Below, piece after piece: positions 14,510 to 32,564 of a stretch of 64,000 nt of DNA; positions within the stretch are counted from its first letter, which is position 1, and every line of letters starts with the position of its first letter. Where the stretch lies: the NCBI GenBank assembly GCA_963844965.1, contig CAWJQC010000004.1, positions 41,609-105,608 on the forward strand, in the 5' to 3' direction. The DNA comes from an uncultured bacterium. GTDB taxonomy: Bacteria; Patescibacteriota; Minisyncoccia; UBA6257; 2-01-FULL-56-20. Under the pieces are notes generated by a model. That model was not told the origin of the DNA, ran no database searches, and worked only from the letters and a program-made list of their open reading frames with translations. The translations under genes and the position numbers were made by a program.

Positions 14510-14600
14510 TTTTAGAAAATAGTAAGTAGAAATTAGAAAATAGAATTTTGTCGGGATTTTCGGCGAAGTTCCGATTTCTATTTTCTATTTACTATTTTCT
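14510..14600. repeat. word-repeat palindromic spacer (tagaaa/ttctat words) between convergent dnaE and the cytidylyltransferase gene
   Basis: AGAAAATAGTAAGTAGAAATTAGAAAATAGAA ... TTCTATTTTCTATTTACTATTTTCTACTTTCTA, imperfect inverted arms. Confidence 0.5.
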
Positions 14601-15006
14601 ACTTTCTATCTACGATATTGCTTTTATATCTATGCGGCTCGTGCGCCCTCAAAACAACCATCTTCGGCCGCCAACGAAATTCCTTGCGGTGATTTTTCAG
14701 GTCCTCTTTGAGCGCCACCTGGTCGTAACCCAAAGCGATAACGTCGGGCTTGTGCTTTTTCACGACCTCGTAAACGCCGAGTTCAGCGTCGCCGAGCGCG
14801 ACCTCGTCAACAAGAGGTTCTTTTCGCAGGTCGTCAATTCTCCGCGCGAGATTTCTCTGCGGCAGACGGCCCTTCAAGTACTCAGCCGTATGGTCCTGCG
14901 CGACTGCGACGAGCAAATAATGGCCGTATTCCCTGGCTTGTTTAAAAAATTGACGGTGACCTTCATGGATGCCGTCAAAAACGCCGAAGACCAGAACTTT
15001 TTTCAT
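14599..15006 (-). CDS. cytidylyltransferase-like nucleotidyltransferase (HIGH motif; TagD/HldE-domain-like)
   Basis: MKKVLVFGVFDGIHEGHRQFF... about 135 aa, Rossmann-like HxGH signature. Confidence 0.5.
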   Translation of the reverse strand: MKKVLVFGVFDGIHEGHRQFFKQAREYGHYLLVAVAQDHTAEYLKGRLPQRNLARRIDDLRKEPLVDEVALGDAELGVYEVVKKHKPDVIALGYDQVALKEDLKNHRKEFRWRPKMVVLRAHEPHRYKSNIVDRK

Positions 15007-15068
15007 GTATCACGCAACATGAAACATGTAGCAGTTAAAACGGTGCTACATGTTTCGTGTTATATGTT

Positions 15069-16517
15069 TCATTTTTTCGGACGCATCAGCGGGAAAATCA
15101 CGGTCTCGCGCACGGGCTTGTCCATCAAAATCGCGAATAGGCGCTCTGACATGCCGAAACCGGCGGCGGGCGGCATACCGTACTCCATAGCTTCCAAGTA
15201 ATCCTCGTCCAGCCGCTGGGCTTCATTGTCCCCTTCCGCACGCAACTTCATCTGCTCCTCAAACCGCGCGCGCTGGTCAAGGGGGTCATTCAGTTCCGAA
15301 AAACCATTTCCCACTTCCGTGCCACAGGCCACTACCTGAAACCGTTCCGCGACTTTCGGATTTTTCCGACTGCGTTTGGCCAAGGGTACTAATTCAACCG
15401 GTGGGTCAACCAAAAAGCACGGCTCAATCAGTTTGGGTCGGATGGCTTTCTTATATATCAGATCAATAAGGCGTCCTCTGCCGAGATTTTCCTCCGGCTG
15501 CAGGCCGAAAGAACGTGCCGTGATAAAAAGCTCTTTGCGCGTGGCAACCGTCGGGTCAAGCCCGGCAGCTTTCTTAAATTCCTCCACGTAATTCACTTTC
15601 GGCCACCTCTTCCCCCAGTTTATTTTTTTGCCGCCGAAGGTCACGGTAAAACCGCCGCAGGTTTTTTTGACAACGGCTTTGTACATTTTTTCCACGGACG
15701 CCATCATGTCGTTGTAATCGGCGTAAGCCCAGTAGTATTCCATGTGCGTGTAGTCCTGCAGATGTTCCTTGTCTATGCCTTCGTTGCGGAACACGCGGCC
15801 AATCTCAAAGACCCTTTCAAAACCGGCGACGAGAAGTTTTTTCAAAGACAGTTCCATGGATATGCGCAGGTAGAAGTCAACATCCAGCGCATTGTGATGC
15901 GTTTTGAACGGCTCGGCGTCCGCGCCTCCGGGAACGCTCTCCAGAACGGGCGTTTCCACTTCCAAAAATCCTTCGCCCTTAAGATAATTGCGGATAGTTT
16001 CCCAAAAAACGGCTTTCTTCTCAAAAAGCACCTTTGCTTCCGGATTCATAAGCAAATCCAGGTATCGTTTCCGCAGGCGCGTTTCAATGTCTTCCAGCCC
16101 GTACCACTCGCTCGGCAACGGACGCAGGGATTTCGCCAGTATTTTAAGCTCTTTAACTTCCAGACTTTCCTCTCCTTTTTTCGTCTTGAACAACGAGCCA
16201 CCCGCGTAAATAAAATCGCCGATGTCCAAAACGGATTTCCAAAATTCAAAATCCGGCAAATTGTCTTTCTTCAAAACCAGCTGCAGCTTGCCCGTGGCGT
16301 CTGCCAGATCAAGAAACACGATATTCCCCTGGTCGCGCGAGCCCAAAATGCGCCCGACCAAAGAAATCTTCTTCCGGGATTTCGCCAGCGCGTTGAATCT
16401 TTTCCGCGCCTCGGCAATCGCAAGCGTCCGCTTCGCCTCCGGCGGATACGGGTCGAGCTTCACTTTCTTTATTTCTTCCAGCTTCTTCAACCGCTCTTTG
16501 ATAAGATCGTCAAGCAT
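15069..16517 (-). CDS. lysS: lysyl-tRNA synthetase (class II)
   Basis: OB anticodon-binding N-terminus plus class II core (FRNEGIDKEHLQDYTHMEYYWAY, motif 3 at the C-terminus). Confidence 0.9.
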   Translation of the reverse strand: MLDDLIKERLKKLEEIKKVKLDPYPPEAKRTLAIAEARKRFNALAKSRKKISLVGRILGSRDQGNIVFLDLADATGKLQLVLKKDNLPDFEFWKSVLDIGDFIYAGGSLFKTKKGEESLEVKELKILAKSLRPLPSEWYGLEDIETRLRKRYLDLLMNPEAKVLFEKKAVFWETIRNYLKGEGFLEVETPVLESVPGGADAEPFKTHHNALDVDFYLRISMELSLKKLLVAGFERVFEIGRVFRNEGIDKEHLQDYTHMEYYWAYADYNDMMASVEKMYKAVVKKTCGGFTVTFGGKKINWGKRWPKVNYVEEFKKAAGLDPTVATRKELFITARSFGLQPEENLGRGRLIDLIYKKAIRPKLIEPCFLVDPPVELVPLAKRSRKNPKVAERFQVVACGTEVGNGFSELNDPLDQRARFEEQMKLRAEGDNEAQRLDEDYLEAMEYGMPPAAGFGMSERLFAILMDKPVRETVIFPLMRPKK

Positions 16518-16755
16518 TAGATTAATTATGCCCCATTATCAATCAAAATTCAAAATCGGGATAACATAAAAAGCTGTTTTTGCCGACAGGCTAAAACACC
16601 TTATATCCAAAAGAATTGAGTGGCGTTTCTTGGGAAACCCGCAGCCGATTTAGCTAGGTCTTTGCCGAAAGGCAAAGTAAATCGGCGAGGACAAGTCGAA
16701 TTTGCCGCCGGAGCAAATTCGACGGGTTCCCAAGAAATCTCGCCGCTCGATTCCC

Positions 16756-17215
16756 TCACTCTATCTTAGTAATCTGGTATACAATCTGTCCCGCCGGCGC
16801 GTTAACGGTCACGCTGTCGCCGACTTTCCTGCCGATGAACGCTCTGCCGAGCGGCGATTCGTCGGAAATCTTTCCTTCCTCCGGCTTCGCTTCATAAGAA
16901 CCGACTATCGTGTAACGCGCAATCTGATTCTCCTTTCTTGGCGAAAACCGTGGAGCAGACGCCAACTTTCTCCGCTCCTTCTGTCTTCTTTATAATCACC
17001 GCTTTTTTCAGAAGTTCCTCCAGATCAAAAATCCGCGTCTCAACGAGCGCCTGCTCTTCCCTCGCCTCCGCGTACTCGGAATTTTCCGAAAGGTCGCCGT
17101 ATTCCTTCGCGTGACGCAAACGCTCCGCGATTTCCGCGCGTTTCGTATTTTTCAGAACGTCAAGTTCCTGCTTCAATTCCTCAAGACGTTCTTTTGTTAA
17201 GTAATATCTGTCCAC
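16756..17215 (-). CDS. greA: transcription elongation factor GreA; single-base frameshift near 16945
   Basis: N-terminal coiled coil with GDLSENSEYAEAREEQ in one frame. C-terminal ENQIARYTIVGSYEAKPEEGKISDESPLGRAFIGRKVGDSV in the adjacent frame. An extra base sits in AAGAAAGGAG. Confidence 0.7.
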
Positions 17216-17277
17216 GATAGAAAATTAAAAAATTTAAAAATCAAAATGCAAAATTTGGGTGTCCTACGGACCAGATT

Positions 17278-18141
17278 TTATAATTTGTCAATTTTAAATT
17301 TTTCATTGTTATTTTGAACTTTGATTTTTACATTTTCAACTTGATACTTGCCGGTCCACAGCCACCAACGAATTTTACACGTTTCCCATAAAGTTTTCAA
17401 GTAGGCGGAAGCCGGAAGCCTTGAGCGGGCATCGTTCACCCAATGAACCGGAATTTCCTTAATTTTGTAGCCGAATTTCTTGGCCAATGCCAGGATCTCC
17501 ACGTCAAATCCCCAACCGCTGATTTTTGATAAATTGAAAATTTTTTCCGCTGCCTCATCCGTAAACGCCTTGAAGCCACACTGCGTGTCCCAAATCTTCG
17601 GCAACAGCAGTGCTTGAATGATCAAATTCCCGACCTTTCCCGGGATCTGGCGGTAGAAGGGCTGCGGCGGGTCAAGTTTGCTTCCTTTGAGCACGCGGTC
17701 ACAGATCACGACATCATATCTCTCGCGCGCCGCCACGGTCGGCGCAGAAAGCGTTCCCAGTTTCATATCATCCGAATCCGACTCAACTGGTACGCCTCCC
17801 GGAGCAAAATACGGCATCATGGCATTGAAGTGATCTATGGACGTAGAATTGTCGGCATCGGTGAAGAGCCGAATCTTCCCCCTTGCGAGAAGCATTCCCT
17901 GCCGGACAACTCCGCCCTTGCCCTTGTTCTCGGAATTATCTATCAGCTTGAGGTTTTTGATAAGCTTCGCCATATTGCTGACGATTTGGGCGGTGTTGTC
18001 CTTTGAGCCGTCGTTCACGACCAAAATTTCGTAGGAATATTCCGCGTCTGCCAGGCGCTTGTCAATATCAACGAGCGTCAAGGGCAGCCGCTCGGCCTCG
18101 TTGTAGGCGGGAATGATGATAGAAAGATAGGGCTGGGCCAT
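17278..18141 (-). CDS. family 2 glycosyltransferase (DPM1-like)
   Basis: IIIPAYNEAERLPLTL ... VVNDGSKDNT ... DADNS motifs. Confidence 0.75.
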   Translation of the reverse strand: MAQPYLSIIIPAYNEAERLPLTLVDIDKRLADAEYSYEILVVNDGSKDNTAQIVSNMAKLIKNLKLIDNSENKGKGGVVRQGMLLARGKIRLFTDADNSTSIDHFNAMMPYFAPGGVPVESDSDDMKLGTLSAPTVAARERYDVVICDRVLKGSKLDPPQPFYRQIPGKVGNLIIQALLLPKIWDTQCGFKAFTDEAAEKIFNLSKISGWGFDVEILALAKKFGYKIKEIPVHWVNDARSRLPASAYLKTLWETCKIRWWLWTGKYQVENVKIKVQNNNEKFKIDKL

Positions 18142-18276
18142 TGAAATAGAAAATAGAATTTAGAAAGTAGAAAGTAGTAGGTAGTAGGAAGAAAAAACTG
18201 AAAATTTCTAAATTCTAATTTCTGATTTCTAAACAATTAAAATTATAACACAAAAGAAACAGCTGAAATTCCACGC

Positions 18277-19038
18277 TCAAATCTTGGTTAGTATTCTTGT
18301 TCCCTGTTCTGTTATAGCAACCGTATGTTCCCAATGAGCGGATGGTGAGCCGTCGGCGGTGATAAAACTATCGTCGGCGAGCTGCTTTGTCGCCCCGGAG
18401 CCCATCGCTACCATCGGCTCAATCGCGAGCACCATTCCTGGCACAAGTTCTTCGCCTTCGCCTTTGCGGCCAAAATTCAGAACTTGCGGCTCTTCGTGAA
18501 GGTCGCGGCCGATACCGTGACCCGTGAGCGAACGAACGACCGAGAAACCATTTTTTGTCACGAACTTTTCAATAGCACAACCGATGTCCCCCACCATTTT
18601 TCCAGGCCTCGCTTCCGCAATACCAATATTAAGTGCTTCTCTCGTGACGTGAATTAATTTCTGTGCTTCACGGCCGATAGCGCCAACGGGAACGGTAATC
18701 GCCGAATCGGAATAAAATCCCTTGTATTTTAGTCCCAAATCCAATTTAAGAAGATCGCCGCTCTTCAGCGCGTAATCCGACGGCAACCCGTGCACGACAA
18801 CGTCGTTCAGGGATGCGCAAATCGTAAATGGATATGGCTTTTCGGAGCCCGCTGGTCGGTAACCCAAAAACGCCGGCTCGGCTCCAGATTCTTTTATCAG
18901 CTTCTTCGCCAATTTGTCCAAAAAAATTGTGGTGACGCCCGCGCGGACCTCTTTCCTAAGCGCCTCAACAACCGAAGCGAGCCGCTGCCCAGCCTCGGCC
19001 ATGATTTCAACCTCAGCGGGAGTTTTTATGGTGGTCAT
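18277..19038 (-). CDS. map: methionine aminopeptidase type I
   Basis: Pita-bread fold motifs (VVHGLPSDYALKSGDLLKLDLG, HGIGRDLHEEP). Confidence 0.9.
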   Translation of the reverse strand: MTTIKTPAEVEIMAEAGQRLASVVEALRKEVRAGVTTIFLDKLAKKLIKESGAEPAFLGYRPAGSEKPYPFTICASLNDVVVHGLPSDYALKSGDLLKLDLGLKYKGFYSDSAITVPVGAIGREAQKLIHVTREALNIGIAEARPGKMVGDIGCAIEKFVTKNGFSVVRSLTGHGIGRDLHEEPQVLNFGRKGEGEELVPGMVLAIEPMVAMGSGATKQLADDSFITADGSPSAHWEHTVAITEQGTRILTKI

Positions 19039-19793
19039 TACGAAAACAAAACCCGATAAAAGTCCACTGAGCCGGCGGAGGCCTTCCTCACGGTGGTTTT
19101 TCTGCCGATGCCGCGCGTTCGCAGCATAATCGTACCAATTATCTTGTTGAGCACTTTATATGGCGCGGCTCTGGCGTTAATAACTTCCAGGTTGTAACCC
19201 AATTTATCCAAAATATTGAAAACCGGCTCGGTGCGATTCTTATACTCCTTAAGACGTACCTTGATCACCTCCGGTTTATCCAATGAACGTCTGTAAAAAT
19301 TTCCGCCGCACACGGGGCAATACCTCGGCTTAACCTTGGGGTAATATTTCGCAAGCAGCGTGTAGCCGCAGGATTTACACACCATGCGGGCGCCGTTTCT
19401 CTTGATTGAATATTCTGCCGGCAGCCGCAACTCAAAAATAAATATATTCTCCCGGCCATAAAGCCGATCCAAAATCGGCATAAGCCGCTCGCCTTCGTAA
19501 ACGGTGCGCGGCGAGCCGCTGAAAGCGACGCCGAATCCCGCCTGCGCGATCTTCGTGACCGCGTTCGCCACCTCGCGCGAAACAAAGCTCGGTGTCATCA
19601 AAATCCCGCCATCAAAAAGTTTCCGCTCGCGCTTTACAATTTTTTCTTTCTGCCGCGCCTGGTCGTGCACAACCGATTCCAAAAATTTTCCCGTGTCAAA
19701 ATGAATCAGGTTCAGTTTTTGCGCCAATAAATTCGCCTGTGTTCCCTTACCCGAACCCGGCGGCCCGTAAATTATAATGGCGATTTTTTTCAT
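19038..19793 (-). CDS. adk: adenylate kinase with Zn-finger LID domain and a C-terminal extension
   Basis: IIIYGPPGSGKGTQ P-loop; CKSCGYTL..CPVCGG LID. Confidence 0.85.
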   Translation of the reverse strand: MKKIAIIIYGPPGSGKGTQANLLAQKLNLIHFDTGKFLESVVHDQARQKEKIVKRERKLFDGGILMTPSFVSREVANAVTKIAQAGFGVAFSGSPRTVYEGERLMPILDRLYGRENIFIFELRLPAEYSIKRNGARMVCKSCGYTLLAKYYPKVKPRYCPVCGGNFYRRSLDKPEVIKVRLKEYKNRTEPVFNILDKLGYNLEVINARAAPYKVLNKIIGTIMLRTRGIGRKTTVRKASAGSVDFYRVLFS

Positions 19794-19915
19794 CCCGTTA
19801 GAGACAGGGAACGCTTCGCCAGTTAGACGAACCGCTATCTGTCATTATTATTTTTGATAAATGAAGTTGGTTTGTGTAAATTAAGCGTCCCCGTAGCGAA
19901 GCGGTCTCTAACGGG
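19794..19915 (-). promoter_or_regulatory. long-range stem-loop leader ending immediately at the adk start codon
   Basis: CCCGTTAGAGAC (19794-19805) and GTCTCTAACGGG (19904-19915) are perfect 12 bp inverted repeats with nested CGCTTCG/CGAAGCG. The 3' arm directly precedes the ATG. Confidence 0.4.
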
Positions 19916-20004
19916 ATTCATGCACTTGAAACAATTCTAACACAAGATGCCCCTGCAATTTAAGGGGGATTTATGCACAGCAAATCGGCACACGCCATGT
20001 CGCG

Positions 20005-20035
20005 ACAAACAAAAACCCCGATTCTCATCGGGGAT
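20005..20035 (-). terminator. rho-independent terminator after the P-loop NTPase gene
   Basis: Minus strand reads CCCCGAUGAGAAUCGGGG followed by UUUUUGUUUG. Confidence 0.5.
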
Positions 20036-20040
20036 GCAAA

Positions 20041-20679
20041 CTATTCCGGCTCAATACCAAGAACATCGCAAACGGCGCAGAAAAGGCGCTCTTTCTTCTT
20101 TTTGAAACCTGTAGAATTATCAATTACCGTCAAATTTCTGTGTGGTCGCCAACCGGCGAGAATGCGCCGATCCAAAGCGCGGGCTTTTTTAGGGGTCTCG
20201 TATCTCACTTCGTTGCTTTTATTCCCATAATGCTTCTCTGCGCCCAACGCGGCCGTCACAAGGTGTATCACGGCGTCGTATCTCGTATAGATGTCGTGAA
20301 GCAACATTTCCTTGTCTTTCAAAATCTTTTCCAATGAAACTAGACCGTCGTATCCAACCCGATCGACGATTCCACGATCGCACAAGATTACTATATTTTC
20401 ACGGGGCAAGGTTTTTGCCAAAACCTCAGTCCCGTCTTCAAGGGCTAGTTGCAAATCAACAATATATCTCCCCATAAGGAAAGAGGTGTGTGAATCTTCC
20501 GCAACAATTCTCTTTATGTCGTATGCGCCCGTGCCTATACCGAAAAGGATGGTTGCAGCTTCCGGAACGAGCAATGGTTGCCAACCAGCCGCCTTCAACT
20601 TTCTAACGACGTACTTTATTCCCAGCGTTTTTCCCGAACAAGGCCCACCGGTAATGGCAATCTTTATAATCCTTCCCAT
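20041..20679 (-). CDS. P-loop NTPase (AAA_28/NadR-like nucleoside or nucleotide kinase fold)
   Basis: Walker A IAITGGPCSGKT near the N-terminus; about 210 aa soluble protein. Confidence 0.45.
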   Translation of the reverse strand: MGRIIKIAITGGPCSGKTLGIKYVVRKLKAAGWQPLLVPEAATILFGIGTGAYDIKRIVAEDSHTSFLMGRYIVDLQLALEDGTEVLAKTLPRENIVILCDRGIVDRVGYDGLVSLEKILKDKEMLLHDIYTRYDAVIHLVTAALGAEKHYGNKSNEVRYETPKKARALDRRILAGWRPHRNLTVIDNSTGFKKKKERLFCAVCDVLGIEPE

Positions 20680-20836
20680 TTGCGACCTCCCGGAAGATAA
20701 TTTCAATTTCGCTGCCTAAAATATATCAGAACCTTAAAATTTGTGCAACAAAAAGTTTTGTATGGTAGCGGTCAATGGACAACAACGTAGGAATGATTTA
20801 GAATTTAGTCAGCATCACAAAATACGGGAGGTGGCA

Positions 20837-21193
20837 ATGGCTACTAAGAAAAAATTCAGATTGACGAAGAAAGAGCGCACAAAACGGAATCCGAAAGGAA
20901 AAATTTCCCGCCGAATTGCCGAATTGCGCCGGAAATTTAAAAAATTTTCAAAGACGCCTACAGACAACGTGTCTATTCGTTCCTTGGTTCGCTCTAATAT
21001 TAAGCGCAAGATTAAGATGCTGAACGACCACCTGAAGGGCAAGATTGATATTTTTGCCGAGATTGCGAACGAAAAACCCAAGACCGAAGTTCTGCGTTCG
21101 GCAGAGCAGCAATTATCTTTAGCTCAAATCAGGGTAGACACGCTCAAGAAAGAATTGCAGAGAATTGTCTGGCTCAAAGATTTGGTCGGTTAG
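20837..21193 (+). CDS. hypothetical Lys/Arg-rich coiled-coil protein; opposite strand to its neighbours
   Basis: GGGAGGTGGCA precedes ATG 20837. MATKKKFRLTKKERTKRNPKGK... Confidence 0.4.
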   Translation: MATKKKFRLTKKERTKRNPKGKISRRIAELRRKFKKFSKTPTDNVSIRSLVRSNIKRKIKMLNDHLKGKIDIFAEIANEKPKTEVLRSAEQQLSLAQIRVDTLKKELQRIVWLKDLVG

Positions 21194-21379
21194 ATGTGGA
21201 ATTTACCAGACAAAATAACGGCGCCCCCTCGGCGCCGGATTTTTTTCGGCAGTTGCACATGCTTAGTTATCTAAATTTTCCCAATGCGGAGGCCATTGCC
21301 TCTCAAAAAAGAAAGGGCCGGATTATCCATCCGGACCCTGCGGCCTGCCGTGGCCGCTTCAAACCGGTCTCGCCCCGCC

Positions 21380-21814
21380 TCATTTGCCAACTTTCGGAGT
21401 GACGTCAGCCGCCGGAACGGCAAACTTGATCTCTTCTATGTCGCTGCCAAAGTCAGTACCAAGGTTATAGACAAACCTACCAACACATACCTGCTCTCCG
21501 ACTACCATCTTCAACCCTGGTTTAACAGGAACAGAACGGATCCTGTCACGCTGACTCTTGATTGCGACCCTGTCGAGGCCGAGGACCCCATCAGGTATCA
21601 CCTTCACGACGGTATAACGATAATCGTCAATGCCCTTGACATAGATGCGCAGGGACTCCCGACTGACGAGATCAATGTCTTTTTGTTCGCGCAACGCTTC
21701 TTGCTTGACGACATCGCGGGCGTGATCGTAGGCGGGTTGAGTTGCCCTCCAAACGATTCCCGCCAGAAGCAATACCGCAGAAATTAATAAAGCGACCGTA
21801 AAGTTCTTCCCCAT
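21380..21814 (-). CDS. hypothetical membrane-anchored protein (single N-terminal TM)
   Basis: MGKNFTVALLISAVLLLAGIVW... 144 aa. Confidence 0.4.
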   Translation of the reverse strand: MGKNFTVALLISAVLLLAGIVWRATQPAYDHARDVVKQEALREQKDIDLVSRESLRIYVKGIDDYRYTVVKVIPDGVLGLDRVAIKSQRDRIRSVPVKPGLKMVVGEQVCVGRFVYNLGTDFGSDIEEIKFAVPAADVTPKVGK

Positions 21815-22144
21815 GTTTCTTCCCTCCGATTTGAGATACCCAACCAGAAAAAGCTGGGCTATAAGACCGAAAACTAGATTGTGCAGAACTACTTATATGT
21901 TAGCATATAGTCAATAATAAGTCAAGTGCTTAAAAACGCTTGATTTTGTTGGCTAAAACGTACTTCGCCCTGCTATCAAGAAAGCGCACGGAGATTCTTC
22001 GCATGGCTCAGAATGACACCGGCTCTTTATAAAAAATCCGTTTTGCGCCAGCAAAACTCCTTATTTCCTACAGCATTGAGGGATGTTTCTTTGGAACCAG
22101 AAGCGGAGGCCGCGCAAAAATGAATGAGTGCGGCGAAGATTTTT

Positions 22145-24562: not shown

Positions 24563-24707
24563 GTTGGCGTTAAATTTCTAATATCTAATTTCTAATTTCT
24601 AAACAATATTTGAAATTCCAATGACAAAAACTTAAAATGGTCTGTTTTCAATTTGGGACTTAGAAATTGGGGTTTGTTTAGGATTTAGAAATTAGGAATT
24701 AGGGCTT

Positions 24708-25074: not shown

Positions 25075-25626
25075 TTATGCCGGGGCCGTTGTCGCCGCTC
25101 CGGCTTTTTTGCCGACTTTTCGCTTTATTACCTCGCCGCGATAGTGTATCCCCTTTCCCTTATATGGTTCGGGCTTCTTCAGCGCCCTGATATTCGCGGC
25201 CACCTTGCCGACCAGATCTTTATCAATGCCGGAAATCTTTATCGCGTTCTTCTCTACCACTACGGCAATGCCTTCCGGAATTTTCAGGCGAACCGGTTGC
25301 GCGTACCCCAAGAAAAGAACAAGCTCGTTCTTTTCGGTTTGAGCGCGATAGCCAACGCCCTCAATTTCCAGATTCTTCTCAAAGCCATTTGTGACTCCCT
25401 CAACGGAATTTTTAACCAGAGACCAAGCCGTGCCAGCAAGCGCCCGAGCGCGTCCCTCGTTGTCAGTTCCTTCGATCCGGATATCCTCACCCTCTACCTT
25501 AACACGAATTCCCGGATTGACGGCAATCTTTATTTCCCCGCGAGGTCCCTTAAAGATCAAAAAGGAACCCTCGTTTTTCACGGTAACGCCCGGCGGTAAT
25601 TTGACTGGTTTTTTGATTAAACGGCT
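25075..25626 (-). CDS. rplF: 50S ribosomal protein L6
   Basis: [33 protein letters not shown]... two L6 repeats. Confidence 0.85.
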
Positions 25627-25736
25627 CATTGATAACAAATGGAAAATGTAAATATCAAAATGTAAAATGACAACCCAAAATGCAAAAATTTTTAATTCTG
25701 AATTGTAATTTTGATTTTTGCATTTTAAATTTTACG

Positions 25737-26117
25737 TTACCATATTTGAAATAAATATTCCCCGCCGACTTTGTTTTTCCTGGCGGTTTTGTTACTCATT
25801 ATGCCTTTAGGCGTGGAAATAATACCGACGCCGTAGCCGTGTTTTACCGGCTTCAGGCTTCTGTAATCCGCATAGATGCGCCGGCTCGGCTTGCTTAATA
25901 TTTTGAAATCGTTTATGGCCGGTTTTTTACCGCCACCGGCAAGTTTAATTTCTATCGCGCCGCGCACACCGGCACTTTTCTTTTCAACGGCTTTCACGTA
26001 GCCCTCTTCGGCCAAAACTTTGGCGACGGCAAAATCAAACTTTGAGAGGGGGGTGGTGATTTTTTCTTTCCCCGAACGCTCGGCGTTTTTTATTTTTACC
26101 AGCAGATCGTAGTACAT
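25737..26117 (-). CDS. rpsH: 30S ribosomal protein S8
   Basis: MYYDLLVKIKNAERSGKEKITTPLSKFDFAVAKVLAEEGYVKAV...; start placed at the internal Met by L14/S14 spacing. Confidence 0.85.
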   Translation of the reverse strand: MYYDLLVKIKNAERSGKEKITTPLSKFDFAVAKVLAEEGYVKAVEKKSAGVRGAIEIKLAGGGKKPAINDFKILSKPSRRIYADYRSLKPVKHGYGVGIISTPKGIMSNKTARKNKVGGEYLFQIW

Positions 26118-26125
26118 AAATTTTA

Positions 26126-26311
26126 TTACCAAGACGCCTTTTTGACCCCGGGTATTTCCTGCTGCGTTGCCATTTCCCTGAAGCAAATCCTGCAAAGATT
26201 GAATTTCCTTATGTAGCCGCGTTTTCTGCCGCAACGAAAACACCGCCGCACAATTCGCGTGGAATATTTTGGCGTTTTTTTGCTTCTTGCGATGACAGAT
26301 TCTTTGGCCAT
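26126..26311 (-). CDS. rpsN: 30S ribosomal protein S14 type Z (zinc-binding, 61 aa)
   Basis: [61 protein letters not shown]. Confidence 0.85.
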
Positions 26312-26392
26312 GATTATAAATAAATTTTCAATTTTTAATTTTCAATTTTAAAATGTTTGGAAATTGTAAAATTGAGAATTATAAAATTGTTT

Positions 26393-26911
26393 TCATTTCT
26401 TCTTTAGCGGCAATCCTAACTCCCTAAATTTCTCTATCGCCCATTGCCGATCTTTCTTGCGCGGAACGATGCTCACTCCCAACGAAAAAGAGAGTGGCGA
26501 TTCTTCCGGCTTCACTTCAGGAAAAACAAATTGTTCTTTAAAGCCGACGTTCAGAACGCCTCCGCGATCAACCGCGCCAAGATCTACCCCCCTGAAATCT
26601 CGGACCCTTGGCCATACTATCTTAACCAAGCGCTCAAAAAAATCAACCATTTTTCCGCGCCTTAATGTAGCTTTCAAGCCGACGATCTGGCCTTCGCGCA
26701 CCTTGAAGCCGGATATCGATTTTTTGGCGCGCCTTACCTGAGGCTTCTGGCCCGCAATGAGCGCGATGTCGCGCGATACCTGCGGCAGCCCCCTTTCCTC
26801 AAAGTTGGGGTTTTGAGCTGCGCGACCCACGCCGGCGTCAATGACGATCTTCTCTAAAAACTGTGTTACACGCCGACTGTTCTCGGATTGTTTTGGCTGT
26901 TCGTATTTCAT
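26393..26911 (-). CDS. rplE: 50S ribosomal protein L5; start uncertain (26911 or 26926)
   Basis: KIVIDAGVGRAAQNPNFEE...GKMVDFFERLVKIVWPRVRDFRG. Confidence 0.8.
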   Translation of the reverse strand: MKYEQPKQSENSRRVTQFLEKIVIDAGVGRAAQNPNFEERGLPQVSRDIALIAGQKPQVRRAKKSISGFKVREGQIVGLKATLRRGKMVDFFERLVKIVWPRVRDFRGVDLGAVDRGGVLNVGFKEQFVFPEVKPEESPLSFSLGVSIVPRKKDRQWAIEKFRELGLPLKKK

Positions 26912-26912
26912 T

Positions 26913-27218
26913 TTATGTTGTGGCATTACATTTCTTGCAATATCGGACTTTTCGCCCAGATTCAAAACGGTAACCAACGCGCGTCGCTTTCTTGCAACCT
27001 GAACATACCAGCATCACCTTGGATGCCGGCATCGGACGCGGAACCATGACCGTTTCGCCTTTCTGCCCCTGTCTCTTCGGACGCACGCGCTTCTTATAGA
27101 GATTTAGTCCTTCAACGGTAGCGCGTCCATCGTCTGGAAAAACATTCAAAACGGTGCCGCTTTTGCCGCGATCTTTGCCGGATAATATTTTAACTTGGTC
27201 GCCTTTCTTTATGTGCAT
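26913..27218 (-). CDS. rplX: 50S ribosomal protein L24 with Cys-rich C-terminal extension
   Basis: MHIKKGDQVKILSGKDRGKSGTVLNVFPDDGRATVEGLNLYKK (KOW). Confidence 0.85.
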   Translation of the reverse strand: MHIKKGDQVKILSGKDRGKSGTVLNVFPDDGRATVEGLNLYKKRVRPKRQGQKGETVMVPRPMPASKVMLVCSGCKKATRVGYRFESGRKVRYCKKCNATT

Positions 27219-27229
27219 GATTGAAGTTC

Positions 27230-27599
27230 TTATACAATTTCTTCGGCCATCGTCATTAATTTTTCAAAACCTTTTTCCTTGAGCTCGCGCGGTAAAGGAC
27301 CGAAGATCCTGGTCGCTATCGGTTCCTTCTTGGCGTCAATCAGCACAACCGCGTTCTCGTCAAAACGCACGTAAGAACCATCCAAACGCCTTATGGGACT
27401 CTTTCGTGCGCACGATGAGCACCCGGACGATGTCCTTTTTCTTCACGGTTTTTCTGGGCTCGGCGACCTGAACGGAGGTCACGATAACGTCACCCACACC
27501 TCCATATCTCCTGCGCGTTGCTCCCAAAATTCTAAAGCAACGGACGATTTTCGCGCCGGAATTATCAGCAACCTTTAAAATACTCCTTTCTTGTATCAT
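27230..27599 (-). CDS. rplN: 50S ribosomal protein L14; single-base frameshift near 27355
   Basis: [43 protein letters not shown]...VRTK in frame 1, then [41 protein letters not shown] in the next frame. An extra A sits in ACGAAAGAG. Confidence 0.8.
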
Positions 27600-27668
27600 T
27601 GCTTTGTAAAATGTTTACTGCGACATGTGAAATGTTTTATTTATATGATCTTTCCATGTCGCTTGTCG

Positions 27669-27929
27669 CTATTCTACTTTTGCCACGATTCTCCATCTTT
27701 TCTCTTTTGATGTCGGCCTTGTTTCCTCTATGACAACCTTATCGCCAACGCGATATTCGTTTTTCTCGTCATGCACTTTAAACCGCGCGGTGACCCTATA
27801 GTACTTTTGGTACTTGGGATGCTTTTTAAACCTTTCTATTTCAATTACCCTCGTCTTCTGCATCTTGTCGCTTACCACCACGCCCTCAAGCTTCCTATGA
27901 TTTAATTTTGCGTTGGATTTTTCCGCCAT
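27669..27929 (-). CDS. rpsQ: 30S ribosomal protein S17
   Basis: RKLEGVVVSDKMQKTRVIEIERFKKHPKYQKYYRVTARFKVHDE. Confidence 0.85.
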   Translation of the reverse strand: MAEKSNAKLNHRKLEGVVVSDKMQKTRVIEIERFKKHPKYQKYYRVTARFKVHDEKNEYRVGDKVVIEETRPTSKEKRWRIVAKVE

Positions 27930-27934
27930 GATAA

Positions 27935-28144
27935 TTATTTGTTGCCGTTATTTTCGGCCTCGCGCATGAAGGTAAGCACCCTCGCGATATCTCTGCGCAG
28001 TTTTCTTAATTCTTCCACGTTCTTGACCTTGCCGGCTGCCAAATCAAACTTCAAAACTCTTAGGCGCTCTCTCCACTCCTTGAGGAGTTTCGCAAGTTCC
28101 GGCATCGGCTTGGTTTTTAATTCTTGGATCTCTTTACGTTTCAT
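27935..28144 (-). CDS. rpmC: 50S ribosomal protein L29
   Basis: MKRKEIQELKTKPMPELAKLLKEWRERLRVLKFDLAAGKVKN. Confidence 0.85.
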   Translation of the reverse strand: MKRKEIQELKTKPMPELAKLLKEWRERLRVLKFDLAAGKVKNVEELRKLRRDIARVLTFMREAENNGNK

Positions 28145-28148
28145 ATCG

Positions 28149-28560
28149 TTATTTACTAATGACCTTGCTTTTGAACGGCAGTTTATATCCGGCGAGGCGC
28201 AGGGCTTCCTTTGCCATATCCCCGTCCACGCCGTCTATTTCAAATATAACCCGACCGGGCTTCACGGGGAATACGTAGTGGTCAACGCTTCCTTTCCCGC
28301 CGCCCATGGTGGTTTCCGGCGGCCGCATGGTGACCGGCTTATCCGGGAAAACGCGTATCCAGAGCCGGCCGCTGCGCTTCAAGTGATTCGTAATGGTTTT
28401 CCTCGCAGCTTCAATCTGCTTGGAATTCAACCACGACGGCTCAAGCGCCTTCAGACCGTACTCGCCGTAATTCAACCCCAAACCGCGCGTTTCCACCGGC
28501 GCGCTTGCGCGACCTGCCCTTTTGCCACTTCCTATGTTTTACTTTTTTGGGAATCAACAT
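28149..28560 (-). CDS. rplP: 50S ribosomal protein L16; single-base frameshift near 28480
   Basis: ATG at 28558-28560 gives [25 protein letters not shown]. The downstream frame gives [30 protein letters not shown]... An extra T sits in CGGTTTGGGG. Confidence 0.8.
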
Positions 28561-28645
28561 GGTTTTATAAATTCGAAACTTAAAAATCAAAAGGCAAAAG
28601 TGGGATTAAAAAGTTTTAAATTTTGACCTTTGATTTTGTTATTTG

Positions 28646-29329
28646 CTACTTTTTGTTTTCTGTTTTGTCTTTTTGGAATATCTCTCCTTTATATATCCAA
28701 ACCTTGACTCCCACCGTTCCATACGTGGTGTAGGCGACGGCGTGGCCGTAATCTATATTGGCGCGGAGGGTGTGGAGCGGCAAAGAACCGCCCTGCGCCG
28801 CAAGCCACTCGCGCCTCGCAATCTCGTTGCCGTCAAGCCGGCCGGAAAGAAGCACTTTTGCGCCTTTCACTTCCTTGTTTTGTTTGACGCCTTCAAGATA
28901 TTTTTTCATCGTCCTGCGGTAAGGCATGCGTTTTTCCAGATCCCAGGCGATCTGCTGCGCAACGTATTGTGCAGAAATTTCGGACCTTTTCAGTTCCTCA
29001 ACGTTCACACTCAAGTTCCCGGTCAATTTCTTGACTCCCTTGAGCTTCCTTACTGCCGCCTCAATCGCCTTGTTCAGTTCTTCTATGCCTTTGCCGCCCC
29101 TGCCGATTATGAAACCCGGCCTTGCGGCTTTTATCCAAATCTTGATATTTCCGCCGGTGCGTTCTATCTCCACGGCAGCGATGCCCGCCTGCCCGATTTT
29201 ATCCGTAATCACCCTTCTAACTGCTTCATCCTCTTCCAGAAATTTTGCGTAATTCTTGGAAAACCAGCGCACTGGCCAATTCTTGGTAACACCAAGCCGA
29301 TATGATAACGGATTTATTTTTTGTCCCAT
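28646..29329 (-). CDS. rpsC: 30S ribosomal protein S3
   Basis: MGQKINPLSYRLGVTKNW... KH and S3-C domains. Confidence 0.9.
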   Translation of the reverse strand: MGQKINPLSYRLGVTKNWPVRWFSKNYAKFLEEDEAVRRVITDKIGQAGIAAVEIERTGGNIKIWIKAARPGFIIGRGGKGIEELNKAIEAAVRKLKGVKKLTGNLSVNVEELKRSEISAQYVAQQIAWDLEKRMPYRRTMKKYLEGVKQNKEVKGAKVLLSGRLDGNEIARREWLAAQGGSLPLHTLRANIDYGHAVAYTTYGTVGVKVWIYKGEIFQKDKTENKK

Positions 29330-29337
29330 GATTTTAT

Positions 29338-29853
29338 TTATTTGGCGAATCCAGCCTTTCTGCTGAAAATTCTCCTGAAGAAACCGGGTCTTTTCTTCGG
29401 CTCGGCGACTTCTTTTTTGGCCTTTTCAACTCTTTTCTTTTTCGCCGGTTTTTCCTCTCCCGGCGGCAACTTAACTTTTTTAGGAACAACTATCTTGAAC
29501 CGCGGCGAAGCCAGATCCGGTTTCTCCGCTAAAATCATAGTAACGTGGCTCATTTTTCTCTGTATCGGCGTGGCTGTGCCGCGCGCGCGGGGCAGATATC
29601 TTTTGAGCATGGGGCCCTGGTCAACGCGCACACTCTCAACGAGAAATCTTTCTTCGGCTAAGCGCTTATTGTTCTTGATATCGGCGACGGCGGAACGCAA
29701 AAGCTTCAAAAGCGGTACGGCGGCTCGGCGCCTTATGGACATAAGCTGCGCTTCCGCTTCGTGGATAGGCAGTCCTTTAAGCAGATCGGCAATGGCGCGC
29801 ACCTTGCGCGGAGTCATTCTAAGATAATTCAGTTTTACTGTTTGCTTATTCAT
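29338..29853 (-). CDS. rplV: 50S ribosomal protein L22 with basic C-terminal extension
   Basis: YLRMTPRKVRAIADLLKGLPIHEAEAQL... Confidence 0.85.
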   Translation of the reverse strand: MNKQTVKLNYLRMTPRKVRAIADLLKGLPIHEAEAQLMSIRRRAAVPLLKLLRSAVADIKNNKRLAEERFLVESVRVDQGPMLKRYLPRARGTATPIQRKMSHVTMILAEKPDLASPRFKIVVPKKVKLPPGEEKPAKKKRVEKAKKEVAEPKKRPGFFRRIFSRKAGFAK

Positions 29854-29865
29854 GCGTAATTTTTA

Positions 29866-30198
29866 TTATTTCTTGACCTCCTTTGCCGGCGCGGCAGCCG
29901 GTGCTCCAGCGACAGCGGCGCTCGCCTCCAACTCACGCTGCATCTTGCCGCCGTGCCGCGTGAACTTCCTCGTCGGCGCGAATTCTCCCAAGCGATGGCC
30001 GACCATTTCTTCGCTCACTTTAACCTCAATGAAGATCTTGCCGTTGTGAACGCCGAAAGTGAATCCCACCATTTCCGGTGAAATCTCCGAAGCCCGCGAC
30101 CATGTCTTAACAACCACCTTGTCGTCGGGCCTGAGTTTGGAAACCTTCTTAAGAAGTTTCGGGTCAACATAAGGACCTTTCTTTAGCGAGCGGCTCAT
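29866..30198 (-). CDS. rpsS: 30S ribosomal protein S19
   Basis: [19 protein letters not shown]... [17 protein letters not shown]. Confidence 0.9.
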
Positions 30199-30274
30199 AA
30201 TGATAAATTTTCAATTTCCAATTTTCCAATTTCCAAACGTTTGGAAATTCTGAACTTGGAATTATTTTCTCCGT

Positions 30275-31087
30275 TTAATTATAAGTTTTGCTCGACCATT
30301 TTTTCTTATTGCGGGTCTTGTGCCCGCCGGTAACCTTACCCCACAACGTTTTTGGTTTTCTCGTGCCGCGCGGCTGTCTGCCCTCGCCGCCGCCGTAGGG
30401 ATGATCAACCGGATTCATGGCTGTGCCGCGGACGGTCGGCCTCACGCCAAGCCAGCGCGAGCGGCCGGCTTTTCCTATTGTAACCAAATTATGCTCGGGA
30501 TTGGAAAGTTGTCCGATGGAAGCGAAGGAGTTCCAGGAAACCCTTCGTATCTCGCCGGAGGACAACTTCAGGTCCGTATAGCCATCGGCGTTCGCGAGGA
30601 CCTCCACGTAAGAACCGGCGGAACGGGCCAGCTTCCCGCCCACGCCCGGCTTCAATTCTATATTATGTACTTGGTAGCCAACTGGAATATTCTTCAATCT
30701 TAACCTATTTCCGATTTTAAGAGGCGCGGTATCGGACGTCACGATGGTATCCCCGACCGCGAGCCCCTGAGCCGCGAGAACGTAGCGGCGCTCGCCATTG
30801 GCGTATAAAACCCTGGCGATGAATGTGGTTCTGTAAGGATCATATTCCAAAGTTTCAACCTTGGCCGGCATATCCGGGAATTCGCTCTGCACGAAATCTA
30901 CCATCCTGTACAGCTTTTTGTGACCGCCGCCCTGATGGCGCACCGTGATTCTTCCCTGCGAGTTCCTGCCCGCGTGGTCCTGAAGGCGCCTAAGCAGCGG
31001 CTTATACGGTTCTGTTTTTGTAAGCGCACCATAATCGGGTACCGTCATCTGCCTGCGTCCCGGAGTTGTTGGCTTGTAAGCTTTCAT
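30275..31087 (-). CDS. rplB: 50S ribosomal protein L2
   Basis: GRNSQGRITVRHQGGGHKKLYR...GAGSYVEVLANADGY... Confidence 0.9.
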   Translation of the reverse strand: MKAYKPTTPGRRQMTVPDYGALTKTEPYKPLLRRLQDHAGRNSQGRITVRHQGGGHKKLYRMVDFVQSEFPDMPAKVETLEYDPYRTTFIARVLYANGERRYVLAAQGLAVGDTIVTSDTAPLKIGNRLRLKNIPVGYQVHNIELKPGVGGKLARSAGSYVEVLANADGYTDLKLSSGEIRRVSWNSFASIGQLSNPEHNLVTIGKAGRSRWLGVRPTVRGTAMNPVDHPYGGGEGRQPRGTRKPKTLWGKVTGGHKTRNKKKWSSKTYN

Positions 31088-31094
31088 CGGAAAA

Positions 31095-31370
31095 TTATTG
31101 TATGTCTATTTTTTGTCCGGCCTTAAGCGTCACAATCGCTTTTTTGTATCCAGATTGTTTGCCGCGCAGGGCGCCGACGCGCTTATGCTTGGCCGGGCGA
31201 TTGACGATATTGACTGCGACCGCATCGGCTTTGTAAATTTCTTTCACCGCTTTTTTGATCTCCGGCTTGGTGGCGTCATTCCTCACGAGAAAAACGTATT
31301 TGCCGAACTTGGACAAGTCGGTCGCTCTCTCTGTCACCCACGGTTTTTTTATCAAAAATACGCTGCTCAT
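31095..31370 (-). CDS. rplW: 50S ribosomal protein L23
   Basis: KPWVTERATDLSKFGKYVFLVRNDATKPEIKKAVKEIY. Confidence 0.85.
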   Translation of the reverse strand: MSSVFLIKKPWVTERATDLSKFGKYVFLVRNDATKPEIKKAVKEIYKADAVAVNIVNRPAKHKRVGALRGKQSGYKKAIVTLKAGQKIDIQ

Positions 31371-32011
31371 GATTTGTAACGTTTACCCATAATTTCAACG
31401 GCTTTTCTGTCCATGAAAATATTCTTATAGTTCAAAATGTCGTAGAGATTCAGCGACTCCGGAGGAACAGTTTTTGTCTTGACCAAATTCCGCGAGGCGC
31501 GCGCCAAATTTTTGTTTTCTTTGTTCGCGACAAGAAGTAGATCAAATTTTTTATCCTTCTTTTTCAAGTTCAAAACCGGCGCGAGCGCCGCGGCAAGAAC
31601 CTTGGTTTTCGGCCGCTCCACGTTCAAATCTTCAAAAATCCTCACGTCATTGTCTTTGAGTTTGCGCGAGAGCGCGCTCACGAGAGCCAGACGCTTCATT
31701 TTCTTGTTTATCTTCTGCGAATAATCGCGCAACTTGGAAGGTCCGTGCGCCTTGCCGCCGCCAACCCACAACGGCGAGCGGATAGAGCCATGCCTCGCGC
31801 GCCCCGTTCCCTTCTGCCGCCACGGCTTTCTGCCGCCGCCTCGGACTTCGGCGCGGGTCTTTGCGTGCGCCCACGGGCGTCTGGCGTTCGCAAGCTGGGC
31901 AACCAAAACCTGTTGCACAAGCTCCGGATTCCACTTCACGCCAAAAATCTTGTCGGGTAGTTCAATCTCGCCGACCACCTCGTTTTTTAAATTATAAACC
32001 GCGGCTTTCAT
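31367..32011 (-). CDS. rplD: 50S ribosomal protein L4
   Basis: RRPWAHAKTRAEVRGGGRKPWRQKGTGRARHGSIRSPLWVGGG. Confidence 0.9.
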   Translation of the reverse strand: MKAAVYNLKNEVVGEIELPDKIFGVKWNPELVQQVLVAQLANARRPWAHAKTRAEVRGGGRKPWRQKGTGRARHGSIRSPLWVGGGKAHGPSKLRDYSQKINKKMKRLALVSALSRKLKDNDVRIFEDLNVERPKTKVLAAALAPVLNLKKKDKKFDLLLVANKENKNLARASRNLVKTKTVPPESLNLYDILNYKNIFMDRKAVEIMGKRYKS

Positions 32012-32012
32012 T

Positions 32013-32564
32013 CTATTTTCTATTTTCTATTTTCTGTACTTCCAAAATCCCTCCCCTCGCTCCGGGAACCGCTCCCTTTATAAAAAGCAATCCGTTCTCT
32101 TTATCAACGCCGGCGACCTTCAAATTTTTTACCGTCACGCGCTCGTCGCCCATGTGGCCGGCCATGCGGTGGCCCGGCGTAACCCGCTGGGGCGCGGTGC
32201 TGCCGATGGAACCGCCGGCGCGGAAACGGTTTTTCTGTCCGTGTGTTTTCGGTCCGCCGGCGAAACCATGGCGCTTGACGACACCAGCAAAGCCACGTCC
32301 CTTCATCGTGCCCGACACGCGCACCACATCACCTTCCTTGAAAGCATCAACCTCTATTGCGTCACCAACTTTAAATTTCTCGCTTTCGGTTCTGAATTCC
32401 CGCTTTTGCTTTCCGAGAGCGAGCTGAACGGCTTCATATCCGTCCCGTTCGTTAGTGCGAACAAAAGTTACCTTATTCGGCTGCGCGCGAAGCACCGTCA
32501 CGGGCACGACGGTTTTGTCCTTCCAAATCTGGGTCATCTTCAATTTTTTCGCCAGGATAAACAT
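32013..32564 (-). CDS. rplC: 50S ribosomal protein L3
   Basis: MTQIWKDKTVVPVTVL... GRGFAGVVKRHGFAGGPKTHGQ. Confidence 0.9.
   Translation of the reverse strand: MFILAKKLKMTQIWKDKTVVPVTVLRAQPNKVTFVRTNERDGYEAVQLALGKQKREFRTESEKFKVGDAIEVDAFKEGDVVRVSGTMKGRGFAGVVKRHGFAGGPKTHGQKNRFRAGGSIGSTAPQRVTPGHRMAGHMGDERVTVKNLKVAGVDKENGLLFIKGAVPGARGGILEVQKIENRK

Follow-up and report, generated by a model that had tools for sequence, protein, structure and literature searches.

Several of the spacers between genes of the ribosomal cluster in this stretch of DNA (64,000 nt of contig CAWJQC010000004.1, from an uncultured patescibacterium; hereafter the window) are AT-rich palindromes. We consider them probably, at roughly 60%, to be copies of several families of dispersed, mobile elements that resemble repetitive extragenic palindromes (REPs) and the miniature transposable elements with inverted repeats known as MITEs, are built from heptanucleotide arrays and are tolerated at stop-start junctions. 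In every copy, two heptanucleotide simple-sequence arrays of opposite orientation flank a short unique loop. Comparison of the copies indicates that they have been duplicated among stop-start junctions, both within single genomes and among related Parcubacteria-like genomes of the candidate phyla radiation (CPR), and that array length changes by whole 7-nt units. The survey covered this one 64-kb window of the source genome. The comparison loci (L001, L002, L158 and so on; homologous proteins are labelled P0001 and P0003) were picked through ribosomal proteins L5 and L6, which biases them to ribosomal clusters.

Heptamer-array palindromes in the window

A period of 7 nt characterizes these spacers. 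Tandem Repeats Finder (TRF) reported period-7 arrays in 17 places of the window and at nearly every one of the eleven spacers listed in a preliminary description of this DNA, where the word length had been given as 5-7 nt. A scan of lags 4-12 found nine self-similar segments at lag 7, where 30 block shuffles gave 0.0, and none at any other lag. A detector requiring gapless inverted arms that are themselves periodic retrieved 10 hairpins with word-built arms; shuffling within 150-nt blocks at constant dinucleotide content yielded 0.03 +/- 0.18. Because both counts exceed the shuffles, the architecture is real and not a by-product of AT-richness.

The eleven spacers were confirmed at the positions first described, with a GC content of 0.12-0.38 in a window of ~0.50 GC. 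Eight of them contain the two-armed palindrome that had been reported for all, as AT-rich inverted pairs of tandem arrays, whereas 27600-27668, 7910-7975 and 32012-32040 do not. The palindrome at 17216-17277 is real, but its partner arm lies outside that interval, at 17285-17336. Pairing of the arms, as recovered with find_repeats, is imperfect: 86% complementarity over 29 nt at 24578-24606 / 24674-24702 (the example chosen in the preliminary description), 80% over 41 nt at 14513-14553 / 14561-14601 and 71% over 45 nt at 25637-25681 / 25688-25732. Element length ranges from 54 to 159 nt and arm length from 17 to 41 nt, made up of 3-7 heptamers. On the transcribed (minus) strand, nine of the eleven listed sites fold more stably than 200 dinucleotide shuffles (z-scores from -1.6 to -6.1), and large imperfect hairpins are, as first proposed, predicted for most spacers if transcribed. 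In sense, the predicted stems are rich in AU and interrupted by regular mismatches; z exceeds -2.4 for three of them, and the antisense strand is often the stabler. Going by these folds, usual transcription of the operon should give hairpins in the mRNA.

Each spacer had been thought to use a different word. However, an all-against-all blastn-short comparison grouped the AT-rich elements into three recurrent families, namely A (TAGAAAW; elements 7905, 14505, 18142, 24563 and 32005), B (CAAAATN; 17216, 25630 and 28561) and C (CAATTTY; 7640, 26312, 30199 and 45239), while a GC-rich family D, with CGCAGACA words, lies inside recG. Similarity can extend beyond the periodic part, as in elements 18142 and 24563, which are identical at 33/36 nt including the tail TCTAAACAAT. 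Elements 26312 (L5|S14) and 30199 (L2|S19) are 84% alike over the entire spacer. The elements outside recG are the following.

14513-14609, strand not assigned: family A palindrome (TAGAAAW / WTTTCTA) between the convergent dnaE (+) and cytidylyltransferase-like 'CTPt' (-) genes; arms 27-41 nt, 80-89% complementary; z = -6.0 over 14510-14620
15005-15072, minus: word palindrome with ACATGAA-type words, between the LysRS-like gene and 'CTPt'; z = -5.4
17221-17336, minus: family B palindrome in the glycosyltransferase / GreA-like gap; arm 17285-17336 codes the last ~20 codons of the glycosyltransferase; z = -2.3 over 17216-17340
18144-18233, minus: family A palindrome in the map / glycosyltransferase gap; a TGTTATAAT extended -10-like motif lies upstream and the 3' arm borders the ATG; z = -3.9 (site 18142)
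24573-24703, minus: family A palindrome, L18|S5 spacer; 33/36 nt match to arm 18202-18237; z = -4.8 (site 24563)
25637-25733, minus: family B palindrome, S8|L6 spacer; period 7, ~7 copies per arm; z = -3.3 (site 25639)
26323-26390, minus: family C palindrome, L5|S14 spacer; 96% over 28 nt to the L23|L2 spacer of L158; z = -3.7 (site 26312)
27620-27662, minus: plain non-word hairpin, S17|L14 spacer; no tandem array, outside the word-palindrome class; z = -6.1 (site 27600)
28583-28637, minus: family B palindrome, S3|L16 spacer; 95% over 20 nt to element 17216; weak fold, z = -1.6 (site 28561)
30206-30265, minus: family C palindrome, L2|S19 spacer; inverted arms and a period-7 array; z = -1.9 (site 30199)
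32011-32035, minus: single family A array, (TAGAAAA) x3.6 with 100% matches, over the last L3 codons and stop, abutting the L4 ATG; no partner arm
7914-7953, minus: single family A array directly upstream of where rpmG probably starts; lacks a partner arm; z = +1.3
7648-7720, minus: arrays of family C and of ACTGAATTACA in the rpmG / tRNA-Trp gap, unpaired; adjoining them, a distinct perfect hairpin rich in GC
45249-45278, minus: single family C array upstream of rpsL
40373-40432, minus: 8-nt word palindrome (TTAACGNA) upstream of tuf, with a canonical GC-rich T-tract intrinsic terminator on one side and a near-consensus promoter-like site (TTGACA-N18-TATAAT) on the other
58880-59048, minus: perfect (GTAGGTA)n / (TACCTAC)n arms, 24 nt, 100%; the 111-nt loop contains the annotated start of a 550-aa hypothetical open reading frame (ORF)

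Hairpins had been described between every pair of cistrons, which overstates their occurrence. Only six of the 18 junctions from L3 to SecY have a hairpin spacer: L2|S19 (76 nt), S3|L16 (85), S17|L14 (69, the plain hairpin), L5|S14 (81), S8|L6 (107) and L18|S5 (145). The L15|SecY spacer is long (92 nt) but unstructured, and the other 11 junctions are compact or overlapping. Where hairpins occur, their stems take up nearly the whole stop-to-start spacer. Other elements lie beyond mRNA interiors: between two convergent genes, in the gap from a terminator to a promoter, at the ends of ORFs and, in frame, within recG. This agrees with dispersed copies.

The minus strand holds the str, S10 and spc ribosomal clusters, as called with a codon-usage-scored gene caller and Pfam. 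Pfam assigns L3 to SecY at 32564-22143 and adk and map at 19793-18277, and downstream of map follow genes for a family-2 glycosyltransferase (GT2) and GreA-like, LysRS-like and 'CTPt' proteins. The dnaE gene is on the plus strand (11312-14509), and tuf, fusA, rpsG and rpsL lie at 39-45 kb. The closest relatives of L5 and L6 belong to uncultured Patescibacteria/CPR, some named homologues being tagged Parcubacteria, Paceibacterota or Liptonbacteria, and an L6 protein 100% identical to that of the window has been recorded.

We rejected the identification of the elements as intrinsic terminators. Their stems are AU-rich and went unflagged by the terminator scan, except for the GC-richer core 14543-14575, while canonical terminators were flagged at 21219-21237, 20016-20033 and 32579-32600. 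Since canonical GC-rich terminators with U-tracts are present elsewhere in the window, the word palindromes form a separate class. No spacer matched an Rfam family, ribosomal protein leaders included, at the gathering thresholds, which only RNase P and tRNAs pass in the window. A promoter scan was uninformative (34 matches versus 16 expected), its count being inflated by AT-rich islands.

Patchy occupancy and similarity of copies in related genomes

Gene order is the same in all fetched CPR relatives, but spacer content is very different. The summed L3-SecY spacer length is 700 nt in the window, 1593 in L002, ~1055 in L004, 164 in L001 and 277 in L003. In L002, 14 of the 19 junctions are expanded, whereas L001, L003 and L074-L076 are compact and element-free despite the same gene order. 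Elements in L002, L158, L073 and L077 occupy other junctions, with other word families, and the sets of filled junctions overlap only in part. L5|S14 and L18|S5, for example, are filled in the window and compact in L002, and the reverse is true of L3|L4, L23|L2, L14|L24, L24|L5, S14|S8, L6|L18 and S5|L15. The L14|L24 junction, empty in the window, holds three unrelated word families in L158, L073 and L077, and S8|L6 holds family B in the window and family A in L158 and L159. The hairpins are therefore not conserved at orthologous junctions, as the window, L002, L158, L073 and L077 differ in both occupancy and family. At the position of the 18144-18233 element, the orthologue in L158 is a single array (16870-16920).

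Copies at different junctions can be nearly identical. Within genomes, the S8|L6 and L18|S5 elements of L159 are identical (79/79 nt), one element is present at four junctions of L158, and the S14|S8 and S8|L6 elements of L002 are 90% identical over 110 nt, from stop to start codon, the difference being exactly one 7-nt unit. Across genomes, elements at non-orthologous junctions are 86-96% alike, compared with 66-78% for the flanking ribosomal genes: elements at different junctions of L158 and L002 share 87-96% and the genes 66-74%, and the L14|L24 element of L073 matches the L23|L2 element of L002 at 86% over 102 nt, with another pair at 76% over 92 nt. Between these last two loci, blastn similarity was found only between elements at different junctions, and the L24 and L5 genes were not alignable. 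At the same junction, the S8|L6 elements of L158 and L159 are 96% identical over 81 nt, against 78.5% across the locus. Family C is common to the window, L158 and L002, and GCGAAT-type words fill ribosomal protein spacers in L073, L077, L002 and L158. The elements of L073 and L002 share the termini TGAGATAC...GTATCAT, with no target-site duplication recognized. Related copies differ in copy number by whole units, as in the 7-nt indel of L002 and in the arm lengths of the L158 family A copies, whose 3' arm ranges from 29 to 45 nt including a start-proximal ATTCTAA array. Such arrays abut the S14, S8, L6 and S5 starts in L158 and L159, ending in ...TCTAAAC-TTG(start). Slippage in situ cannot account for loops, flanks and an aperiodic word order that recur at non-orthologous sites in diverged genomes; these require copying between sites and lineages, or very strong constraint.

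Beyond the CPR, the detector found no word hairpins in 108 of the 118 loci of other lineages. GC-rich heptamer-array palindromes were found in or near Planctomycetota ribosomal clusters (L010:13439-13554; L014:14279-14368 and 15762-15892; L019:11990-12093 and 19147-19230; L028:2446-2532) and heptamer-array palindromes also in the ribosomal cluster of an Endomicrobium. One of the Planctomycetota palindromes contains TTGGTCA, a heptamer of the cyanobacterial short tandemly repeated repetitive (STRR) sequences. The exact array (ATTCTAA)4 is present in 12 IMG/VR viral contigs (L160-L171). In several of them it has other heptamer arrays or an imperfect inverted partner beside it, or a start codon immediately downstream. 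In L158, S3 and L16 are separated by an inserted gene with a dCMP/cytidine deaminase domain (6339-6743).

The genomes of CPR bacteria are regarded as streamlined, and few bacterial gene arrays are as compact and conserved as the S10-spc array. It is striking for such genomes that, in some Parcubacteria-like lineages, 6 to 14 of its junctions are filled by hairpin repeats more conserved than the adjoining ribosomal genes, sister lineages having none. They offer a natural system to ask how small palindromic repeats spread and how they affect polycistronic expression without Shine-Dalgarno (SD) sites.

Possible RNA-level roles, leaders and local origins

If the palindromes are mobile, replication slippage would grow and shrink the arrays, and a copy-paste process (transposition, homing or gene conversion) would move whole elements, with loop and flanks, to new junctions. 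They may be tolerated there because they resemble normal AT-rich initiation regions and because the hairpin keeps stop and start close. Their AT-richness would equal that of the native leaders of an SD-less organism, and fold-back would hold a stop codon close to the next start, so that operon expression would be little disturbed. Transcribed copies would form imperfect AU-rich hairpins. Should these act as RNase III sites, as barriers to exonucleases or as coupling devices, that would be a side effect and not the reason for their existence.

Several observations weigh against mobile palindromes. No transposase, REP-associated tyrosine transposase (RAYT, Y1) or other mobilizing gene for the AT-rich families was found among the scanned ORFs of the 64 kb, and target-site duplications are not definable. 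The TCTAAACAA tail is inner in element 24563 and outer in element 18142, and arm order varies between copies, which fits poorly with a fixed-ended transposon. Nine of 11 elements lie within 14.5-30.3 kb (binomial by length, P = 1e-4), a regional enrichment near translation genes; per junction, enrichment in the ribosomal cluster was not significant (5/18 versus 6/60, Fisher P = 0.11). In six family A copies of L158 and L159, conservation is 95% in the start-proximal 3' array but 77% in the 5' arm. Among 17 one-sided changes in 24 predicted family A pairs, ten keep G-U pairing in the sense strand and five break pairing. This conservation pattern hints at selection on the RNA or on a leader. The single window and the bias of the comparison loci should also be counted here.

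An alternative is that the spacers are purpose-built RNA hairpins, acting as RNase III or other processing sites, as 3'-exonuclease barriers or as translational insulators that segment the ribosomal protein mRNA. The predicted sense stems of 16-40 imperfect bp, with z down to -6, fill nearly all of the stop-to-start spacer, the changes in family A are mostly pair-preserving A-to-G, and elements are locally enriched near the ribosomal cluster. REP and Correia-type palindromes do affect mRNA stability or are RNase III targets. However, we regard this alternative as unlikely. Only six of the 18 junctions are occupied, relatives with the same operon lack the hairpins or have them at other junctions and from other families, and two of the originally listed sites are single arrays, unable to fold. 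Copies in the terminator-promoter gap, at the convergent junction and in recG are at odds with it as well, as cleavage within recG would destroy its mRNA; since the recG copy is in frame and such cleavage would be harmful, a processing role for that copy is unlikely.

Strand comparison points in the same direction. Selection for a hairpin in the sense strand should favour G-U pairs there. The antisense strand was the stabler in ~8-9 of 13 co-directional elements of the window, and G-U pairs in the elements of its cluster numbered 12 in sense and 25 in antisense. Among 20 elements of relatives, seven were stabler in sense and 10 in antisense, with three ties, and G-U pairs numbered 46 and 60, respectively. 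A sense-specific G-U signature of RNA-level selection was thus absent from these 33 elements, and sense folding was no better than antisense. One design kept throughout the operon for insulation or RNase III processing, as first suggested, is not supported, given the palindromes outside the operon, the relatives of identical gene order that lack them or carry them elsewhere, and sense RNA that is not the stabler. An RNase III or insulator role is unproven; the modelled hairpins that would serve it are not conserved and draw no support from strand asymmetry. The preliminary description had accepted that it would be refuted if intergenic regions in general had the same low-complexity content without conserved pairing. 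This is borne out in part, as word palindromes do occur outside the operon (14513-14609, 40373-40432, 58880-59048 and, in recG, 55580-55694).

The heptamer arrays might instead be cis-acting leaders for translation initiation, binding S1, a Csp-like protein or another factor in an SD-less organism, with the partner arm sequestering the leader and so coupling translation. No SD-like motif was found upstream of ~30 translation genes of the window, and over ~40 start codons such motifs are essentially absent; the 25 nt before start codons (-25 to -1) are AT-rich, with GC 0.08-0.36 in a 50% GC genome; the upstream sequences suggest that the organism uses SD-independent initiation. Arrays abut the L4, rpmG, rpsL and GT2 starts in the window and the four starts of L158 and L159 given above, the stronger conservation of the start-proximal array in family A fits a leader, and a similar proposal was made for TAACTGA repeats (PMC4679880). 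Nevertheless, we find leaders quite unlikely as the explanation, as the word families are many and arms occur in either order, arrays are missing at the starts of most genes (of every gene in several relatives), elements also lie at gene 3' ends and at the convergent junction, and no factor is known to bind the arrays.

It is very unlikely that the elements are a purely local by-product, with AT-rich intergenic DNA yielding arrays and chance palindromes in situ and without copying between sites. Heptamer arrays are a general, slippage-prone class (PMC4692102, PMC4679880), the two L002 copies differ by a single unit, and the exact (ATTCTAA)4 array also occurs in the 12 unrelated viral contigs. 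Against this, composition-keeping block shuffles gave 0.03 word hairpins and not 10, and the idea is largely refuted by the word order, loops and flanks shared across junctions and genomes, with identity above that of neighbouring genes.

An assembly or sequencing artefact in low-complexity DNA can be practically dismissed. The window probably does contain indel errors, as single frameshifts split L16 (28149-28560), L14 (27230-27599), the EF-G gene fusA (41437-43532) and a trypsin-like protease gene (8028-9906) into two ORFs apiece, most likely reflecting assembly errors in essential genes rather than pseudogenes. However, the same families occur in independent assemblies of other projects (L002, L073, L077, L158, L159), always exactly between intact genes.

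Known repeats and the two insertions in recG

Among long simple-sequence repeats (LSSRs), heptanucleotide units are reported to be the most abundant class in many bacteria, and slippage of the polymerase has been suggested to produce them (Mrazek et al. 2007, as cited in PMC4679880 and PMC4692102). In Xanthomonas, 70-75 of ~185 GGGAATC arrays form convergent inverted pairs, and between two species their position is usually kept while length varies (PMC4692102). Like these and the cyanobacterial STRRs, the elements of the window consist of tandem 7-nt direct repeats beyond chance, are intergenic, vary in unit number, often form inverted stem-loop pairs and have a patchy phylogeny. They differ in that one small CPR genome has several AT-rich word families side by side, in that whole elements (arms, loop and flanks) appear to be copied between junctions and shared between genomes, and in that they fill S10-spc stop-start junctions. 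The prevalence of heptanucleotide arrays, unexplained in cyanobacteria (STRR), Xanthomonas and Beggiatoa, is hereby extended to CPR and Planctomycetota.

TAACTGA arrays of Beggiatoaceae lie just upstream of start codons without ribosome-binding sites, also inside ribosomal protein operons; they occur in marine Beggiatoaceae, cyanobacteria and Bacteroidetes, and this cross-phylum sharing suggests horizontal spread (PMC4679880). The arrays described here are likewise a few nucleotides upstream of starts, where ribosome-binding sites are rare, and inside ribosomal protein operons. However, TAACTGA repeats are nearly always direct and of a single word (one inverted case in 170), whereas here paired palindromes of several word families predominate.

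REPs are thought to be miniature mobile elements, are often transcribed and have copies inside replication and repair genes (PMC3733652). As in REPs and bacterial interspersed mosaic elements (BIMEs), the copies found here are multiple imperfect palindromes between co-directional and convergent ORFs, with some intragenic (here in recG). REP/BIME units measure 20-40 bp, whereas these elements are longer (60-145 nt), with arms of heptamer arrays, and no RAYT gene was seen among the ORFs scanned in the 64 kb. Membership in the REP class itself was rejected: GTAG/CTAC near an arm end occurs in 2/24 elements, which equals background (0.08 per 12-nt window), CGTC not having been searched. TIGR arrays were also dismissed from their published description, as their units are ~36 nt and not 7.

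The Correia/NEMIS elements of Neisseria are MITE-like intergenic hairpins, and Rickettsia palindromic elements (RPEs) insert in frame into genes. The copies described here share with the former dispersal, hairpin formation and co-transcription with neighbours, and with the latter in-frame insertion into a conserved protein, as in recG. Unlike in either, no terminal inverted repeats with target-site duplication could be defined here, the arms are internally repetitive, and no transposase partner is known for the AT-rich families. Judging from abstracts, organelle genomes have also been invaded by hairpin repeats, such as RHE in sponges (PMC2800124), palindromic microsatellites in Fusarium (PMC7218506) and repeats in Volvox (PMC2670323). 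There too, small genomes are colonized in intergenic regions by short, partly microsatellite-like and supposedly selfish repeats, although those abstracts concern organelles and other units.

The recG gene (53624-56305) contains, relative to RecG of T. maritima, two clean in-frame insertions built on family D words.

54901-55358, plus: CGCAGACA-family arms with an in-frame GxxExxY / PDDEXK_3 nuclease domain; 155 aa versus 6 in T. maritima RecG
55580-55694, plus: GC-rich word palindrome (CGCAGACA words, period ~10), in frame; 44 aa versus 4 in T. maritima RecG

The longer insert is recognized as a nuclease domain by PF13366 (E = 8.5e-28) and TIGR04256 (E = 2e-31) and lies between inverted CGCAGACA-type word arrays. 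The arms-only insert 230 nt downstream uses the same words, and the right arms of the two are identical at 34/37 positions. One homologue of the nuclease is found in LepA, with a similar translated flank (P0001), and another at the same recG site in a CPR genome from the Rifle aquifer (P0003); tblastn of the insert against all fetched loci retrieved no further copy. All four stand-alone GxxExxY genes with DNA context (L153:1380-2035, L154:1380-2085, L155:1380-2030 and L157:1080-1720) lie between inverted repeats that overlap their own N- and C-terminal codons and outdo every one of 100 shuffles, three of the four being GCGAAW-type word arrays. L153 and L154 have the common termini TAGAAGCG...CGCTTCTA. 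In the open literature searched, we found no description of inverted repeats bracketing GxxExxY genes and, for GxxExxY / PF13366, only incidental mentions and no function.

A tentative and rather doubtful extension of the mobile-palindrome reading is that the word-array palindromes are non-autonomous members of an undescribed, 'REPtron-like' CPR system. The autonomous members would encode a GxxExxY nuclease flanked on both sides by inverted arrays of the words it recognizes, and this enzyme would bring about the homing or copying of both forms to stop-start junctions or even, in frame, to conserved genes such as recG and lepA. The two recG copies of one word family, the bracketing of all stand-alone genes, the homologues in LepA and at the same recG site, and the GCGAAT-type words, similar to the nuclease flanks, in the ribosomal protein spacers of four relatives are in line with such a system. 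However, a partner gene between the same ends was seen only for the GC-rich recG family, and none was found for families A-C. As the nuclease-linked arrays have a period of ~10-12 and not 7, and as families A-C have no nuclease, we do not take this system as the main explanation. It does offer a testable candidate link to an enzyme, the GxxExxY nucleases inside inverted word arrays. A further parallel is given by the intervening sequences of 23S rRNA, inserts bounded by inverted repeats, some with a small ORF, that are excised by RNase III (PMC11270868). Like those inserts, the recG nuclease and the stand-alone genes have a small ORF within an inverted-repeat stem. They differ in host, which is a protein gene or a spacer between genes and not rRNA, and in ORF family, PDDEXK_3 instead of 23S_rRNA_IVP.

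Other features of the window were noted. An IS3-type transposase pair with an integrase core (rve) lies at 4770-5812, and a bacterial RNase P RNA at 1493-1902 scores 100.2 bits, against an Rfam threshold of 100. A large serine recombinase gene (46222-48221) lies beside tRNA-Arg and a partial tRNA-like match (46307-46359), a position that suggests an integrated element. Perfect inverted repeats of 13-14 nt flank tRNA-Thr(tgt) (10584-10596 / 10683-10695) and tRNA-Arg(tcg) (46209-46222 / 46295-46308) and could be a processing stem around the tRNA. Two stretches of ~60 nt are exactly repeated ~2 kb apart (60186-60503 versus 62211-62523). The non-coding segment 50040-50400 contains three consecutive hairpins of 9-nt words with the pattern TGTnnnATT (TGTCCGATT, TGTAACATT and TGTCCCATT), whose period is unlike that of the heptamer elements and which could be operator or iteron-like sites.

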